A DNA stretch of 64,000 nt from Thermoproteus sp. (GTDB taxonomy: Archaea; Thermoproteota; Thermoprotei; Thermoproteales; Thermoproteaceae). The notes beneath the pieces are model-generated. The model was given only the letters and a program-made list of their open reading frames with translations, made no database searches and was not told the DNA's origin. The first letter of the stretch is position 1, and the number at the start of each line of letters is the position of its first letter. The stretch covers positions 32,001 to 96,000 of the forward strand of contig JBMFIG010000001.1 in assembly GCA_049976425.1 (NCBI GenBank), given 5' to 3'. Below are positions 35,362 through 43,097 of the stretch, piece by piece. Both the position numbers and the translations under genes were made by a program.

Positions 35362-36329
35362 GGGGTCAAGACGGCTCTCCCTAGCACTCTACCCGCCTCC
35401 ATGTCCTCGTGCGCCTTCACGGCCTCGGAGAGCTTGTACTCGGTGTATACCGGGGCGATCAAGCCTCGCCTCAGGAGATCCAAGCCCTCGTAGACGTCCC
35501 ACGGCTTGTAGGCCATGTGGCCCAAGACGGCTATCTGCCTCAATATTATGAGGGCTGGGCTGAGGTACGCCCTCTCGCCGGTCACGTTTCCTATGAGGAC
35601 CACCACGCCGTTTCTTTTGGCAAGCCTTATGGAGGTCTCTATAGTGGGCGAGCCTGCCGTGTCGAAGACAACGTCGAAGTCCTTCATGCCTTCCTGGTAT
35701 ATCCCTATGCCGAGAGAGACGTATGCCTTAGCCTTGTCGGCCGACCTAGTGGATATGTATACCTCGGCTCCTCTGAGCTTGGCCACTTGGGCCAGATAGA
35801 GCCCGGTCCCCCCGCCGCCGACTACCAAGACCTTTCTGCCGTCGACGTCTACCCTTCTGACCGCGGCTATGGCCGTCGGTATCACGTCGGTGGCCAGCAC
35901 CGCGGCGCGGGGATCGACGCCGTGGAACGGATAGACGAAGTTGGAGGGGAGCACCACGTACTCCGAGTACGTCCCGTCTCTATGCTCGCCCAAATACTGC
36001 GCGTTTCTGCAGAGGTTCTCGAGGCCTCTCCGGCAATAGTCGCAAGTCCCGTCGTACATGGCGGGGGCCACAAACACCCTCTGTCCCACAAGATCCCTAT
36101 CGACGCCCGGCCCCACGTCCACGACCTTGCCGACGCCCTCGTGGCCTGGTATCACGGGGAGCCTCACGTGTGGAAAGGCCCCCTTCCGCACGACGAGATC
36201 CCTCCCGCAGACGCCCGCGGCCTCTACCTTCACCAACACCTCCCCCTTGCCGGGCCTCGGATCCTCGAGGTCCTCCAGCCGCAACGCCTCAGAAGGCTTG
36301 CCGAACCTAACAAGCCTAACGGCTCTCAT
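35358..36329 (-). CDS. zinc-dependent alcohol dehydrogenase family
   Basis: GVCGRD, PGHEG and DGTCDYCRRGLENLC. Confidence 0.9.
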   Translation of the reverse strand: MRAVRLVRFGKPSEALRLEDLEDPRPGKGEVLVKVEAAGVCGRDLVVRKGAFPHVRLPVIPGHEGVGKVVDVGPGVDRDLVGQRVFVAPAMYDGTCDYCRRGLENLCRNAQYLGEHRDGTYSEYVVLPSNFVYPFHGVDPRAAVLATDVIPTAIAAVRRVDVDGRKVLVVGGGGTGLYLAQVAKLRGAEVYISTRSADKAKAYVSLGIGIYQEGMKDFDVVFDTAGSPTIETSIRLAKRNGVVVLIGNVTGERAYLSPALIILRQIAVLGHMAYKPWDVYEGLDLLRRGLIAPVYTEYKLSEAVKAHEDMEAGRVLGRAVLTP

Positions 36330-37278
36330 ATCGCGCGCCGGAGCCGTTACAGGTACAGCTCCTCTCGGCCTTGGCTCTGGCGAGGGCCTCGGAGGGCGGC
36401 AAGCCCTCGGCCACGTACTTCTCGAAGTCGTACTCTGTCGTGTACCCCATTATCCTCAACTCCAGAGCCGCTTTTAATATATTCCAGTCGTGCTTGTAGA
36501 TCAAGGCCGCTATCTCGTTAATCGCGATGACGGCGCTTGGCTTGAAACGGAGAAAGACGGGCGTGAACACGTCGATGTACGCGCTTCTCGAACCGCCCCT
36601 GATGGCGACCTCGCCGAACTCGCCTCTAAGGGCCCTTAGTATATTCCGGGAAGCCTCGGTGACGCATTTAGAGGTGAGCTCGGCGAGGATTCCGGAGTCG
36701 GAGGGGTCTAAGGCGTAGTATCCCAGAAAGCCGCCGTTGGCCAAAACAGTAGAAACCCGGTTGACCAAATAGTCTCTGCTCAGCTCCCCGTCGGCGCCGA
36801 GGCCCACGACGGCGACCTCCACATCGACGCCGAGGTCCTCGGCCCTCTTCAACACGGCGAGCGAGTACGAGTCGGCCAGCGGCGAGTGTAGCTCGGGCTC
36901 GCAACCGCAGGCAAGCACGTCGCCGCCCACGTCGACCCCCGTTATCTTGTCGAACCTAGACGCCAGAGCCTCGGCGACGAGGCTTGGAGGCGCGTCGGGC
37001 GAGATCGCATATACCCGCCGCCCTAATACGGGCGACACGCAGGCGCCCTGCGGCGTTATTGTCCTGCCGCGCCTGACCGCGCGGGCATCGGGCCCTATGA
37101 GGAATAGAGGGTTGTCGCCCTCGGCGCCGAGGAAATCCTTGCGGAGGAGGGGCCCCGGCTCTGGGTCGACGACGTAGCGCTCCCAGGGCAACAGCCCGGC
37201 CTCAGCCCCCAGCTTAACTGCCAGGACAGCTGCGCTTACGATATCCCCTCCGCCGCCTATGGCGAGGACAAGCCTCAT
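36316..37278 (-). CDS. DUF1152 family protein
   Basis: AIGGGGD, VDVGGD, SPLAD and GADGEL. Confidence 0.8.
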   Translation of the reverse strand: MRLVLAIGGGGDIVSAAVLAVKLGAEAGLLPWERYVVDPEPGPLLRKDFLGAEGDNPLFLIGPDARAVRRGRTITPQGACVSPVLGRRVYAISPDAPPSLVAEALASRFDKITGVDVGGDVLACGCEPELHSPLADSYSLAVLKRAEDLGVDVEVAVVGLGADGELSRDYLVNRVSTVLANGGFLGYYALDPSDSGILAELTSKCVTEASRNILRALRGEFGEVAIRGGSRSAYIDVFTPVFLRFKPSAVIAINEIAALIYKHDWNILKAALELRIMGYTTEYDFEKYVAEGLPPSEALARAKAERSCTCNGSGARYESR

Positions 37279-38468
37279 CTAAGCCCTCTGAGGAGCTCCA
37301 CGTAGGCCTTGGCCACGTCGACGACTTGCCCGATCTCCACGTACTCGTCGGGCGCGTGCGCGGTGAACTCGGGCCCGGGCCCGTAAGTCACTGTGGGTAT
37401 GCCGCGCCTTATGAAGAACCTGGCGTCTAGGCCGCCGATACACACCGTCTTCCTCGGAGGCCTCCCAAGCGCCTTCGCCACGGCCCCCTCGAGCGCCCTC
37501 GTCAGCGGGTGGTCCGGCGGCACCACCGCGGCCTCGGATTGGTTTATCACCTTCACCTCGACCCTGTGGTCCAGCCCCGCCGCGGCGCTCTTTATGAACT
37601 CCTCCACCTCCTTCTTGACCTCCTCGACGGTCTCCTCCGGTATTAGGCGTCTGTCGAGCGTGAAGGCGAAGTAGCCGGGGACCACGTTGGCCTTGACGGA
37701 TCCCCTCACCTCGCCCCCCATGGTGAGGGTGGGCACGGCGCCTCTGGGATCCTCGAACTCGTACCTGCTCCGCTTGGCGGAGAGCCTCGGGATATAGCTC
37801 TCCAAGATCTTGTTAGCTATCTTCACGGCGCCCTCGAAGGCGTTGAGCCCCAGCCACGGCGTCGAGCCGTGGACCTGTTTACCGTAGACCTCTACCAAGA
37901 ACCAGACGAGGCCTCTATGGCCTATCCAGATGTTGTCTACGCCCGAGCCCTCTGCTATGATCACCCAAGGCGCCTTGACCTTGCCCGATTCGGCCAGATA
38001 GCCGGCCCCCGACTCGCCGCCTATCTCCTCGTCGGGCACGAACGACACCTCGAAGTTCTTCAACCCCTCCCTTATCGCCACTTCGGCGGCTAGGGCTATC
38101 GCGGTCAATCCCCCCTTCATGTCCACGGCGCCCCTCCCGTACAGCCTCCCGTTGACGTAGCGGGGCTCAAAGGGCTTGGTGACGGTCCAGGCGGGCTCGG
38201 GGCCCGGGGGCACCACGTCGTAGTGGCCGTTGAAGTGCACCTTGGGCTCGCCTATTCTGGCGAGGAGGATATATCTTGGATAGTCGACGCATTCGGGACA
38301 GGCTCTAGCCACGACGGGCTTAGGCACCTCTATCACCTCGACGTCCATGCCGAGCCCCTTGAAGTACCTCTCGGCGAAATCGACAAAGTCCTTGTACCTC
38401 TCCCCGGGCGGGTTTATAGTCGGTATCCTGACCATTTGGGACAGCAGTTCGACGGCTTTGTTCTCCAT
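37275..38468 (-). CDS. M20 family metallopeptidase (ArgE/DapE-like)
   Basis: FNGHYDVVP, GRGAVDMKG, DEE and AHAPDE. Confidence 0.92.
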   Translation of the reverse strand: MENKAVELLSQMVRIPTINPPGERYKDFVDFAERYFKGLGMDVEVIEVPKPVVARACPECVDYPRYILLARIGEPKVHFNGHYDVVPPGPEPAWTVTKPFEPRYVNGRLYGRGAVDMKGGLTAIALAAEVAIREGLKNFEVSFVPDEEIGGESGAGYLAESGKVKAPWVIIAEGSGVDNIWIGHRGLVWFLVEVYGKQVHGSTPWLGLNAFEGAVKIANKILESYIPRLSAKRSRYEFEDPRGAVPTLTMGGEVRGSVKANVVPGYFAFTLDRRLIPEETVEEVKKEVEEFIKSAAAGLDHRVEVKVINQSEAAVVPPDHPLTRALEGAVAKALGRPPRKTVCIGGLDARFFIRRGIPTVTYGPGPEFTAHAPDEYVEIGQVVDVAKAYVELLRGLR

Positions 38469-38613
38469 ACAGCTGGCCTAGCAACTATTATTAATCAATA
38501 ACCCCCTGCTTTCGCAAAATAGATAGCCCGACCACGTTGCAAGCCGGCGGGCAACGGCGGTGTTTTAATTGCAAGTGAAGCGATTTCGCCATTTTCGTAA
38601 TTCTATTTTTAAT

Positions 38614-39981
38614 ATGAAGAAAAGGATCAGTGTGGATACGAGAATCTGGATAGCGGTTGTCGCCTTAATTGTTGTATTGTTCTTTGCGATAGCCGTTAAA
38701 GTACAACGACCGGCCAATGCTCCGACCGCAAACTGGGCTTTAAAACAGGCAGAAACCAGCGGAGTCCCCACGCCCCGCGTATGTATAATAGGTTTCCCCA
38801 ACTCATCTTATATCGGAGCGCTTGTGAAGGGACTAAGGGAAATCAACATATCGTATGTTATCGGCGAGGCCAATCCGATCTGCGATATATTGGTTGTCCA
38901 AGATAGCCTAGCCCTGTCGAGTGGAATGTTAGGCTTCCTCAAGAGCGGCAAGCCGGTTGTCGTCGCCGGTCCTCATGCATCTAAAGCCTTGTTGGATGCG
39001 GCTGAGAGCTATATAGCCCAACACGCGGCGGTGTTGATCGTGGGCGACGTGGGTCCAGACAAGACAGCACGGTTGCTATTACCTTCGGACGCCTCGGCGA
39101 TAGGGCTCTTCATGTTGCCTAGCCGTAATTCAACCAGGTACATCACGGGTTGGGACATATTCGCAGATATGCCGCTGGAGAGCATGGCATACGCCGTGTT
39201 GCGTACATGGATAGACTACTATCACACGATCGTAACGCCCAGGAGCACATACGCCTTCGATATACTGAATCTACAGACAGTAACATTGCCGACTGGCTCG
39301 TCGGCGACAAGCGTGACCGTACAAATAACCGGCTTAAACTACGTAGGATATGTAGGTTGGTACCAATCTAACTTTACAGATTGGTATGGCAATCTTGGCG
39401 GCCAACAGTGGTTACAGATAGACTTCTACTATACCTACCAGTCTTACCCCACCTACTGGTGGTTTGTAAATGTAATAAAGCACTACGTAGAGGCTTATCC
39501 TGTGCTGGTGAGCCTCGGCTTTACGCCGTACGAGGCTACCGAAACAGTTAATATGTACACAAATCAATGGCCTGGACAAGTTTACTGGGATGGAGCTCCT
39601 ATAAACCCTGGATCAATTCTCCCAAATCCGACTATATATCAACTATCCGTCGGTCCCCCAGGCGCTCAAGTATCGGTGACGGAGTCGGTATACCGAGGAC
39701 AGATAAGCTGGGGCACCACCGGCAATCCTGCGGCAAGCATCATGACGTGGATGTGGACATTTAGCAACGCTAGTCTAGGCTATAGCTACGAGGTCGTGCC
39801 TATCAGCGTCGTACTGCTCGACCCTAACAAGCTTGGTGGAGTCCCTCCGGCGGTGGAGTCGTTTAGCACTACTGCATACTTCTGTAATGTCTTCTACTGC
39901 GGAAACGCGGCGCCAACTATAAGTCTAAAGGTTCTAGTATATACTACAAGTGCACAAGTAGTATCGACATCGACAAGCTAA
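38614..39981 (+). CDS. large secreted/membrane-anchored protein with beta-rich C-terminal domain (leukocidin/cytolysin-like signature)
   Basis: MKKR followed by a hydrophobic helix, an alpha/beta N-domain and a W/Y/T-rich C-domain; GC visibly lower than flanks; lone gene. Confidence 0.75.
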   Translation: MKKRISVDTRIWIAVVALIVVLFFAIAVKVQRPANAPTANWALKQAETSGVPTPRVCIIGFPNSSYIGALVKGLREINISYVIGEANPICDILVVQDSLALSSGMLGFLKSGKPVVVAGPHASKALLDAAESYIAQHAAVLIVGDVGPDKTARLLLPSDASAIGLFMLPSRNSTRYITGWDIFADMPLESMAYAVLRTWIDYYHTIVTPRSTYAFDILNLQTVTLPTGSSATSVTVQITGLNYVGYVGWYQSNFTDWYGNLGGQQWLQIDFYYTYQSYPTYWWFVNVIKHYVEAYPVLVSLGFTPYEATETVNMYTNQWPGQVYWDGAPINPGSILPNPTIYQLSVGPPGAQVSVTESVYRGQISWGTTGNPAASIMTWMWTFSNASLGYSYEVVPISVVLLDPNKLGGVPPAVESFSTTAYFCNVFYCGNAAPTISLKVLVYTTSAQVVSTSTS

Positions 39982-40074
39982 CATTTAATAATATTTATTT
40001 TGATATAATATTTAGAATAGGAGCATATGTATTACTGAGGCTTTTCTGCCAGCTACTGGGAGGTTTAGGAGGTC

Positions 40075-41208
40075 TCAGCGCCGGGCGCAGTACGGCTTGA
40101 TGTACTTAAACACGTCGCTCAGCCTCGGCCTGTCCTTATAGACGACGACGTAATGAGGGAGGTCCTTCCAAGTGGCTAGGGCCAGCCTCTCGTCGACTAG
40201 GACGAGTAGCGGTATCTTGGCCGCCGCCAGCTTCTCGTACTTTCTGGCTATGTAGTCGGGGGTCCAGAAGCCCACTATCTCGACGTAGAGATCGCCTATC
40301 TTGAAGTCCGGTATGAAGACTCTGTTGCCCACCACCAGAGCCTCCGGCTCCCTCTGCACCGCGCACAGCCTGGAGACGTTTCTGTAGAACTCCTCCTCCG
40401 CGGTGCTGTCGAACTGCGGCGGCTCTATATCCCTATGCGCCAGTCTGGGGGCGCTGGACTTGGCCTCGACGAATTTATAGACCTTGCCGTATAGGCCTAT
40501 GTCGGCCTCTATACGCCAGTCGTCGGCCGAGATGACGTATGGTACGAGCTTGGCGAGCCTGGTCCCGTAGCGCTCGGTCTGCTTGATCGCGGAGACCGGC
40601 CCGTCTATATCGAGCCTTATCCCGTCCCCGGCGCGCTCGGCGACGTACATCAAGCCGAGGCCCTTAAGCGCCCTCACGAGCTCCTTCACGCGGGCCCCGT
40701 CGGCGACGACGTATGCCGCCATGCGCCTAGATCTGAACAGGAGCGTCTGCATCAACGACGTGTTGTACAACGCGGCCAGCTCCTCGGCGGATATGTCGGG
40801 CCCCCGTACTATAACCCGCTCGTCCTCGTGTATCTTGGCGAGCGCGGCCTCGACCGCCTCGGGGGATATCTTGAGGCGCGAGGCAACGGCCTCTACGACC
40901 CGCCTCCTCCCCTCCTCGTCGACCACCGGATATGCCTTAGCCGCCTCGCGGAAGACCTCGAGCCTGATCTTGGTCAAGAGCCTTCTGTCGACCTCCTCGA
41001 GCGCTATCGTCCTCTCGACTATGTGGGCCAGCCCTCTGGCGAGCTTCGGCTCAAACGGCGCGTCCTCCACCTTGGCTCTAGCCTCCGCGAGCCTCATGCC
41101 GGGCTTGTACGCGCCGAGCACGTACTCGGCAGGCCACAGCTCTCTCAAATACCTCGGCGTCACCCGATCACCCCGTCTGCTAGCCCTCAGCAACTCCAGC
41201 GGTATCAC
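40075..41208 (-). CDS. bax1: Bax1 endonuclease (DUF790), XPB partner
   Basis: YGTRLAKL, FDSTAE, REPE, IPDF and EIVGFWTPDY. Confidence 0.9.
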   Translation of the reverse strand: MIPLELLRASRRGDRVTPRYLRELWPAEYVLGAYKPGMRLAEARAKVEDAPFEPKLARGLAHIVERTIALEEVDRRLLTKIRLEVFREAAKAYPVVDEEGRRRVVEAVASRLKISPEAVEAALAKIHEDERVIVRGPDISAEELAALYNTSLMQTLLFRSRRMAAYVVADGARVKELVRALKGLGLMYVAERAGDGIRLDIDGPVSAIKQTERYGTRLAKLVPYVISADDWRIEADIGLYGKVYKFVEAKSSAPRLAHRDIEPPQFDSTAEEEFYRNVSRLCAVQREPEALVVGNRVFIPDFKIGDLYVEIVGFWTPDYIARKYEKLAAAKIPLLVLVDERLALATWKDLPHYVVVYKDRPRLSDVFKYIKPYCARR

Positions 41209-42557
41209 GACACCCCCCTACGCCTCCTCCTAGACATGTCGACCTCCCTCGTCCTCGCGGTTACCACCTCGTAGATCTTGGCCTTGTGGGGCTTAAGCCT
41301 TAAGGCCCTTCCTATCCTCTGTATATACTGTCTGCTGGAGGACGTGCCTCCGAGTATCACCACCACGTCGACGTCGGGCACGTCTACCCCCTCGTCGAGC
41401 ACTCTGCCTGTGACCAGCGCCCTCACCTCGCCTCTCCTGAACATCTCCATGACCAGTTCACGCTCTTGGTCGGGCATGTCGTACGTCACCTCCGGTATCA
41501 GATAGCGTCGGGACACCTCCCGGGCCAGCGCAGTGTATTCCGTGAAGATGAGGATCTTGCCGTCCGGGTGCTTCTTCAGTATGTCGGCGACGGCGTCTAC
41601 CTTGCCCTTGCTCTCGAACAAGATCCTCCTCATCTCGTGCCAAGCCTCCAAGGCGCGGCGCGCCTCCGCGCTTCTGCCAGCCAACACGACGAGCTTGCCG
41701 AAGTCGGAGGGCGACTTGAACCTAAGACCCTTAGCCCTTATATAGTCTTTGTATATCTTCTCCAGCTCCTTGTACCGCCTCATCTCCTCCTCGGAGAGCC
41801 CTACCTTCACTACCTCCACGTCGAACTCAGCTAGATACTTGCCGGCCGCCTCCGAGATAGCCATCTTGTAAACCACGGGGCCCACAAGCTCGGGCAAAAA
41901 TAGATGCAGATCGTCGGCTCTTTCCGGCGTGGCTGTCAGGCCCAGCCTATAGGGAGCCGGCGAGAGCTCCGCTATCTGTCTGTAGGACTCGGAGGGGAGG
42001 TGGTGGACCTCGTCGAGCACGAGGAGGGGGTACCTATTGCCTAAATGTTCCACTGCCACGTAGGCCGAGTCGTAGGTGGTCACGGTTATGCAGAGCTCTC
42101 TCTTCTCCTCGCCGTACCAGACGCCCACGCGCCCCGGGAAGTACTCTGAGAGCCTCCTCTCCCACTGCCTCAAGAGCTCTATGGTCGGCACGACCACCAG
42201 CGCCGACTGCCCCAGCCTGGCTATCGCCTCTATCGCCACGTAGGTCTTCCCGGCGCCTGTGGGCATGACGACCACGCCTCTCTTGCTCCTCAGCCAATTG
42301 CCCAACGCCTCCTCTTGGTACGGCCTCAAGACCGGCCTCCTCGCCGCCTCGACCGACCTACATACGGGCGACAGCACGCCGTCCTCATACCTAACCCCCA
42401 ACGAGTCCAACACAGCCTTGATCTTGTAGTAGTACATGCCGAGAGCTCTATATTTACCCACTCTGTTGTCGAATTTTATAAACGAGAGGGATCTGACTTG
42501 CGCCGGCACGTCTCCCGACAACACCACGGTGCCTCTGTCCCAGACCAAGTATAGCAC
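41205..42557 (-). CDS. xpb: XPB/Rad25 DNA repair helicase (probable GTG start 42557)
   Basis: LRPYQ, PTGAGKT, DEVHH, LTATPER and QRIGRALR. Confidence 0.92.
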   Translation of the reverse strand: MLYLVWDRGTVVLSGDVPAQVRSLSFIKFDNRVGKYRALGMYYYKIKAVLDSLGVRYEDGVLSPVCRSVEAARRPVLRPYQEEALGNWLRSKRGVVVMPTGAGKTYVAIEAIARLGQSALVVVPTIELLRQWERRLSEYFPGRVGVWYGEEKRELCITVTTYDSAYVAVEHLGNRYPLLVLDEVHHLPSESYRQIAELSPAPYRLGLTATPERADDLHLFLPELVGPVVYKMAISEAAGKYLAEFDVEVVKVGLSEEEMRRYKELEKIYKDYIRAKGLRFKSPSDFGKLVVLAGRSAEARRALEAWHEMRRILFESKGKVDAVADILKKHPDGKILIFTEYTALAREVSRRYLIPEVTYDMPDQERELVMEMFRRGEVRALVTGRVLDEGVDVPDVDVVVILGGTSSSRQYIQRIGRALRLKPHKAKIYEVVTARTREVDMSRRRRRGVS

Positions 42558-42571
42558 GTCCTTTACATAGT

Positions 42572-42587
42572 GCCCTATATATAGGGC
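42572..42587. promoter_or_regulatory. perfect 16-bp palindrome GCCCTATATATAGGGC over the xpb TATA box
   Basis: Exact inverted repeat in the xpb/coaD divergent region. Confidence 0.5.
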
Positions 42588-42644
42588 TTCCGCCCGGCGC
42601 CCGCCCCAGCGCGGGGCTATAAATACCCCAGTATAGGGCTTGAT

Positions 42645-43097
42645 GTGAAGATGCAGTTCAAGAACGTCGTGCTCGGCGGGACCTTCGACACGCTCCACTC
42701 GGGCCACGTGAAGTTGCTTGCCACGGCCTCGCTGATAGGGGAGGAGATCTTGATAGGTCTTACCAGCGACTCGTTCGCCTCCACGTACAAACAGTACAAC
42801 GTAAAGCCCTTCGCAGTGAGGCTGGCGAACCTAAAGTCGCTCATGAGCTTGATCGCGCCCGAGAGGAAAATAGAATATGCCGCGATAAACGACCCCTACG
42901 GGCCCGCAGTGACGAGGCCGGATCTTGAGGCCATCGTGGTCAGCAGAGAGACCTTGCCCAGAGGCCTCCAGATAAACGACGAGAGGGTCAAGAGAGGCCT
43001 TAGGCCTATGGACGTCGTGATGATAACCACGGTGAAGGACGGCTACGGCAACATCCTATCCTCCACGTTCATAAGAAGGGTGCTCGGCATCAAGTGA
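42645..43097 (+). CDS. coaD: phosphopantetheine adenylyltransferase (archaeal type)
   Basis: GGTFDTLHSGH, DPYGP, IVVSRET and LSSTFIR. Confidence 0.92.
   Translation: MKMQFKNVVLGGTFDTLHSGHVKLLATASLIGEEILIGLTSDSFASTYKQYNVKPFAVRLANLKSLMSLIAPERKIEYAAINDPYGPAVTRPDLEAIVVSRETLPRGLQINDERVKRGLRPMDVVMITTVKDGYGNILSSTFIRRVLGIK

Follow-up and report, generated by a model that had tools for sequence, protein, structure and literature searches.

P0001 of Thermoproteus, a predicted leukocidin-fold protein and candidate tethered, minimal hemolysin-type pore former

A gene for a protein of 455 amino acids, P0001, was identified in a stretch of 64,000 nucleotides from Thermoproteus sp. (assembly GCA_049976425.1, contig JBMFIG010000001.1, positions 32,001 to 96,000), referred to here as the window. 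The C-terminal domain of P0001 is predicted to adopt the alpha-hemolysin/leukocidin fold, and the case for and against a pore-forming role is considered here. The gene is real and intact. It forms an uninterrupted frame from ATG to stop, with an alternative upstream TTG start at 38569 that would add 15 residues, and it is present as a single copy in the source genome. A 455-residue twin with 97% identity, annotated as hypothetical in a Thermoproteus sp. metagenome-assembled genome (MAG), was the sole match in a word-indexed homologue search, and the same search run with the family profile returned just two proteins. The sequencing runs that contain the stretch are hot-spring metagenome DNA only, and no RNA runs are listed.

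A structural model of P0001 was built with AlphaFold2 on an alignment of 28 family sequences. This model had a mean predicted local distance difference test score (pLDDT) of 84.6, a value of at least 90 at 252 residues and a C-domain mostly above 90; a model from the single sequence had a pLDDT of 39.1 and was not usable. The gene and the parts of its product are as follows.

38614 to 39981, plus strand: coding sequence of P0001, 455 amino acids plus stop
38632 to 38703, plus strand: N-terminal hydrophobic helix, residues 7-30, signal-anchor or signal peptide, pLDDT 78-91
38767 to 39237, plus strand: alpha/beta N-domain, residues ~52-208, with a CheY/flavodoxin-like arrangement
39238 to 39306, plus strand: low-confidence linker rich in serine and threonine, residues 209-231, pLDDT below 50 at residues 209-227, 30% S/T
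39307 to 39978, plus strand: all-beta C-domain, residues 232-455, 17 strands, predicted alpha-hemolysin/leukocidin fold
39589 to 39606, plus strand: D326-G-A-P-I-N331, corresponding to the family motif D-W-G-P-x-N and aligned with the leukocidin D-Y-A-P-K-N
39631 to 39693, plus strand: beta-hairpin T340-Y360, candidate prestem/stem, with strands at residues 340-345 and 352-359 and a G-P-P-G turn between them

An earlier interpretation made from the DNA letters (the sequence-only reading) had described this order of domains and quoted the motifs, which were recovered at residues 319-331 and 340-360. In the N-terminal segment, a run of 18 hydrophobic residues comes after an n-region rich in K/R, and an equivalent of the segment is present in most homologues. 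P0001 has A-N-A at residues 34-36, followed by Pro. No conserved cleavage motif was found after the helix among the homologues, and a membrane tether is therefore at least as likely as secretion; the word "secreted" in the sequence-only reading is qualified to that extent. The linker is variable in the family alignment. The C-domain is rich in aromatic residues (W/Y/F, 17.4%) and in S/T (19.6%) and contains only 6.2% charged residues.

The predicted C-domain was compared with known structures by Foldseek and by VIA-align, a Foldseek-independent method. Among the Foldseek matches listed against the PDB, all were leukocidins, gamma- or alpha-hemolysins, delta- or beta-toxins, Epx or Vibrio cholerae cytolysin (VCC). 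The best match had an expectation value (E) of 1.3e-7 and a prob of 1.00, and the target-normalised template modelling (TM) scores were 0.34-0.47 for single-domain toxins. In VIA-align, run against 48,161 representative chains, places 1-7 were all occupied by toxins of the leukocidin family, namely LukAB (16.4), the staphylococcal toxin chain 6u33_A (16.1), NetF (15.5), gamma-hemolysin (14.3), VCC (14.1), alpha-hemolysin (13.1) and CytK (12.1). The match to MspA, a porin of mycobacteria that belongs to the same structural superfamily, was much weaker than the matches to the toxins, and the envelope of Thermoproteus has no outer membrane for a porin. In its overall fold the predicted model agrees with the leukocidin arrangement of a beta-sandwich cap with a rim and a packed prestem sheet, and it is not an immunoglobulin, lectin, S-layer or peptidase fold. 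The leukocidin/hemolysin fold first proposed from the sequence is thus supported by the alignment-based model and by both structural searches, and P0001 is, as modelled, very probably a leukocidin-fold protein.

The lengths of the structural alignments also depend on the state of the toxin. Soluble monomers aligned over 188-197 residues (191-197 in 26 of the 27 entries), and pores and prepores with stems off the cap aligned over 165-177 residues. The two ranges differ by approximately the length of the hairpin, which suggests that the hairpin of the model sits at the prestem position. A structure-independent comparison by protein language model also pointed to the leukocidins, in that the named clusters nearest to residues 228-455 carry PF07968 (scores 0.90 and 0.89; 167 and 160 features in common) and 20 of the 30 hits belonged to the PF07968 set; this result is taken as a lead, because PF07968 is found on just 24% and 20% of the members of those clusters. 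Profile-profile alignment of the C-domain by hhalign against leukocidin alignments of 10 and 14 sequences gave one match each, with E of 0.013-0.015, a probability of ~3% and 24 columns. The match pairs residues 323-346 with residues 119-144 of LukF-PV, that is, the motif and the first stem strand. This alignment is not significant and is no proof of homology, yet it lies at the position that the fold predicts.

Conservation in the family is highest in the stretch W-P-G-Q-V-L-x-D-W-G-P-x-N, which is followed by a short Gly-rich spacer and then the hairpin. Q322 is present in 26/26 sequences, P329 in 25/26, D326 in 16/25, N331 in 16/26 and the motif W in 14/26; in the corresponding motif of 14 bacterial leukocidin-family proteins, both the P and the N are present in 14/14. 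The hairpin columns alternate between hydrophobic residues and S/T in 17-25 of 25-26 sequences per column, with few charges on the polar face, and some members have 4-8 additional residues at the hairpin tip. The D-x-x-P-x-N motif and hairpin that had been singled out in the sequence are therefore conserved across the archaeal family and provide its best local profile-profile alignment to leukocidins.

The invariance of Q322, together with the E of an E-P-S-x-I-x-x-L-D-P motif that occurs in many relatives, raised the alternative that P0001 is an extracellular hydrolase, for example of a glutamic-peptidase-like type, by a possible likeness to a Q/E catalytic dyad. P0001 has V in place of this E and its nearest two relatives, P0003 and P0004, have I and V, respectively, no peptidase or glycosidase family was matched in Pfam, NCBIfam or PDB sequences, and the fold assignment goes to the leukocidins. 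Such an enzyme is most improbable and was set aside, because the E is missing from P0001 and the predicted fold is that of a leukocidin.

The main alternative to a pore former is a non-lytic tethered surface protein, in which the C-domain would be a glycosylated beta-sandwich scaffold under the S-layer with a binding role (adhesin, lectin, or contact with the S-layer or matrix) and the hairpin would be a fixed pair of strands. It is consistent with the transmembrane anchor, with a composition like that of archaeal surface glycoproteins (five N-x-S/T sequons, very few charged residues), with a hairpin that in P0001 is short and imperfectly amphipathic, and with the lack of an immunity gene. Conservation argues the other way, as it is strongest in the motif and in the hairpin with its S/T face, and this would not readily be expected of a passive scaffold; patchy occurrence, horizontal arrival and frequent decay, described below, likewise better suit a gene of conflict. 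On balance, a non-lytic surface protein is considered somewhat unlikely.

The family to which P0001 belongs is patchily distributed, unannotated and archaeal. When 1.84 billion cluster representatives were searched exhaustively with HMMER, 28 proteins were identified at E <= 0.001, including 10 at E <= 1e-10. Most members have 400-560 amino acids and the same layout as P0001. The named members, from Vulcanisaeta distributa (WP_243679201.1), a Bathyarchaeota MAG, Ca. Culexmicrobium and an Asgardarchaeia MAG, are all annotated as hypothetical protein. None of the 28 members matched the relevant Pfam models, and P0001 and the family profile found nothing in Pfam, NCBIfam or PDB sequences, the best PDB-sequence matches (E 0.27-0.72) being unrelated. 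One of the 28 members matched a PHROGs entry without description (E 0.0045). Searches of viral, genome and metagenome contigs with P0001 as query found no relatives, and a fold search of the viral database BFVD returned nothing convincing (one entry at E < 0.001, with a TM score of 0.13).

A profile match was found in 21 of 401 sampled Thermoproteota genomes, belonging to 16 of 161 genera. At least five of the 20 other carrier genomes contain only broken or split copies, whereas one genome (G126) contains two intact paralogues at separate places. The decayed copies, which carry stop codons or are split into adjacent frames, are located as follows (genome, contig and positions).

G215:C1:302037-303396
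G169:C1:1369450-1369860
G077:C15:15481-16080
G286:C1:250218-251374
G304:C1:1242040-1242210

In a tree of 15 intact copies, P0001 is sister (100/100) to a copy from another family of the same order with which it shares 39.5% identity, and some other groupings cut across taxonomic families. The neighbouring genes differ in every homologue locus examined (22 flanking proteins in 14 loci).

Several further features were observed at the homologue loci. A DUF7347/HTH_20 (ArsR-like) regulator adjoins the homologue in two loci (L016, 3035-3907, minus strand; L017, 3040-3897, plus strand), and an IS605 OrfB/TnpB-type gene adjoins one homologue (L023, 2595-3266, minus strand). The guanine plus cytosine (GC) content of the homologue is lower than that of its flanks in several other genomes (L012, L019 and L010), with values for homologue and flanks of, for instance, 0.45 and 0.63 in L012, and 0.46 and 0.55-0.56 in L019. 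This may reflect either repeated transfer or an amino-acid composition that lowers GC, GC at third codon positions (GC3) having been measured in the window only. An additional C-terminal domain of ~110-130 residues (alignment A1, columns ~620-716) is present in four members (P0005, P0007, P0011 and P0015); it has conserved positions for Cys, Trp and Pro and matches no Pfam model. Since Vibrio cytolysin has its lectin domains at this place, the additional domain may serve in targeting.

In the window, GC across the P0001 gene is 0.47-0.53, compared with 0.60-0.66 in both flanks, and its GC3 is 0.546, compared with 0.78-0.84 in seven neighbouring genes. The lower GC and different codon usage noticed in the sequence-only reading were thus confirmed, as was its description of the gene as lone, there being one genomic copy and no conservation of neighbours across 15 homologue loci. 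The following elements surround the gene.

38502 to 40079, no strand: segment of 1,578 base pairs (bp) replaced in a relative, comprising the gene and its own upstream and downstream AT-rich spacers
37275 to 38468, minus strand: M20 peptidase, the neighbour on one side of P0001
40075 to 41208, minus strand: DUF790 protein, the neighbour on the other side, followed by XPB
41205 to 42707, minus strand: XPB helicase, with a 4-base overlap with the DUF790 protein

DUF790 is presumably the Bax1 family, and the overlap of the XPB and DUF790 genes fits the expected archaeal XPB-Bax1 pair. The gene upstream of the M20 peptidase, with which it shares 4 bases, encodes a DUF1152 protein of unknown function (36316-37278, minus strand).

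A relative of the same genus (G026) has ~156 unrelated bp in place of the 1,578-bp segment. The flanks of the two genomes are 95.6% identical over 2,504 bp and 96.6% identical over 1,421 bp, with breaks at 38501 and 40080, and the Bax1 proteins are 98% identical. The segment ends 5 bp short of the DUF790 stop codon (40075-40077). A target-site duplication, a tRNA gene and a convincing terminal repeat were looked for at 38502-40079 and none was seen. A 12-nucleotide AT-rich inverted repeat (92% complementary; 38483-38494 and 39985-39996) brackets the gene; it is probably a chance occurrence or promoter/terminator sequence, because it is short and AT-rich. Among 28 other genomes of the taxonomic family searched with P0001 as query, none (0/28) carries a relative, and the family profile gave no match in 22 genomes of the taxonomic family (0/22). 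Weak matches of P0001 in the former genomes (E 0.004-0.18) were rejected as transmembrane segments of other, unrelated proteins (solute-binding proteins, for example). The gene has recently arrived in this Thermoproteus lineage. Its GC3, its absence from G026 and the patchiness and decay of the family constitute the accessory-gene behaviour that is expected of a weapon.

The proposal that P0001 is a tethered, minimal hemolysin-type pore former combines these observations and is held with evenly divided confidence. The N-terminal helix would hold an extracellular protein at the membrane of the producer, followed by the CheY/flavodoxin-like domain and the flexible S/T linker, with a minimal alpha-hemolysin/leukocidin-fold C-domain of ~215 residues at the outer end. 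The C-domain would oligomerise into a ring, as in its bacterial structural relatives, and the hairpin would swing out to form a small beta-barrel pore. The anchor, N-domain and linkers may keep the C-domain inactive or local until proteolysis or vesicle shedding, and release by proteolysis would resemble the use of the protease-sensitive linker of Vibrio cytolysin. The targets would be the membranes of competing hot-spring microbes. There is an even chance that P0001 forms pores; its use against competitors is less certain than that. Prediction of a four-copy complex of residues 228-455 (0.18, 0.64 and 0.02 in three runs, without controls) is silent on oligomerisation either way.

The proposed pore former differs in several respects from the known systems. 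Identity to staphylococcal leukocidins and gamma- and alpha-hemolysins (PF07968) is 6-12%, and the Pfam model is unmatched. The latch, the rim loops and part of the stem must be missing or shortened in P0001, because its domain has ~215 residues compared with 260-300 in the staphylococcal toxins. The hairpin is about half the length of theirs, and the C-domain, which is archaeal and thermophilic, is fused behind a transmembrane helix and an alpha/beta domain. A segment of 31-42 residues in the P0001 family also contrasts with the Clostridium perfringens delta-toxin, NetB and NetF group, in which the NetB prestem is described as having 47 residues and the NetB rim as having exposed aromatic residues and a lipid pocket (PMC3565830). 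In comparison with the pro-toxins VCC and Vibrio alpha-hemolysin, P0001 has no lectin domains and has a transmembrane anchor. A domain-plus-linker layout does exist in P0001, but its structural alignment with 1xez and 8jbq is confined to the core of the cytolysin (chain residues 134-452); the aligned range starts at 134-135, after the prodomain, and likeness to the prodomain is not part of the match. The nearest functional precedent for an archaeal membrane or vesicle weapon against related strains would be the sulfolobicins, protein toxins of Sulfolobales that are carried on membrane vesicles.

The tether would also place the C-domain beside the membrane of the producer itself, and the linkers (~20 + 23 residues) appear long enough for it to reach that membrane. 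P0001 might accordingly be a pore on the producer's own membrane or vesicles, either a regulated channel or a lysis device (for vesicle release, death under virus attack or solute exchange), in a manner resembling that of MspA, which acts for the cell that makes it. However, none of the four proteins searched (0/4) matched the PADLOC defence-system models, no viral relatives were found in the PHROGs, BFVD and viral contig searches, there is no conserved adjacent regulator or partner, and the structural matches to toxins are far stronger than the match to MspA. A self-acting pore is thus regarded as quite unlikely.

A number of observations weigh against the proposal of a tethered pore former. 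Known toxins of the leukocidin family are released as soluble monomers, whereas P0001 has a transmembrane helix without a conserved cleavage motif in its homologues. No immunity gene, partner or conserved neighbour was found at the loci examined. PF07968 matched none of the 28 family members (0/28), even at E up to 10, and the low hhalign probability (~3%) means that the sequence similarity is not significant. The hairpin proper has 21 residues in P0001, about half the canonical length, and the segment from the motif to W366 has 31-42 residues in the family (median 34), compared with the 47 of the NetB prestem; the caveat of a short stem in the sequence-only reading was therefore well placed. 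The hairpin of P0001 also departs from the family pattern, in that strand 1 is one residue short and E357 lies on the hydrophobic face where 19 of 25 relatives have Y. The S-layer and tetraether membranes of the targets could be barriers, the structure is a predicted one, and a common function does not follow from a common fold. With respect to length, strands of 8-9 residues would be approximately what the membrane-embedded part of a beta-barrel requires, and a half-length stem could still cross the membrane, because the trimmed rim loops would seat the cap closer to it.

The alpha-hemolysin/leukocidin fold is treated as that of a bacterial toxin family, largely centred on pathogens. To our knowledge, hardly any protein weapons of archaea are known, and a pore-forming fold has been described for none of them. 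A search of titles and abstracts, with subscription journals and supplements outside its scope, found no relevant paper on an archaeal leukocidin- or hemolysin-type toxin. In the relevant passages of NanoporeDB, a structure-mining resource of 2026, alpha-hemolysin-like pores are concentrated in one predominant phylum and archaeal homologues are given only for CsgG (PMC13397529). A review of bacterial pore-forming toxins, in the part that concerns archaea, merely notes that they also make such toxins and points elsewhere (PMC9558359). What appears to be new is the occurrence of a known toxin fold, as predicted, outside its previous domain of life, reduced to a minimal form and placed in a new architecture, for which a function is proposed.

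P0001 and its relatives may tentatively be regarded as the first archaeal family of hemolysin/leukocidin-type beta-barrel toxins, minimal and horizontally traded, that would punch small pores in competing thermophiles at 70-90 °C. The trading range proposed would comprise hot-spring and sediment archaea, including Thermoproteus, Vulcanisaeta, Bathyarchaeia, Culexarchaeia and an Asgard MAG. The question is directly testable, since a cultured carrier exists in Vulcanisaeta distributa. If the proposal is true, the family would be a candidate scaffold for naturally hyperthermostable nanopores. A minimal version from thermophilic archaea would extend the fold across domains of life, would show how short the stem and rim can be while still, perhaps, crossing a membrane, and would pose the problem of how S-layers and tetraether lipids are dealt with by a beta-barrel toxin. 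The record of the toxin fold, which is bacterial and centred on pathogens, would then understate by far either its age or its mobility.
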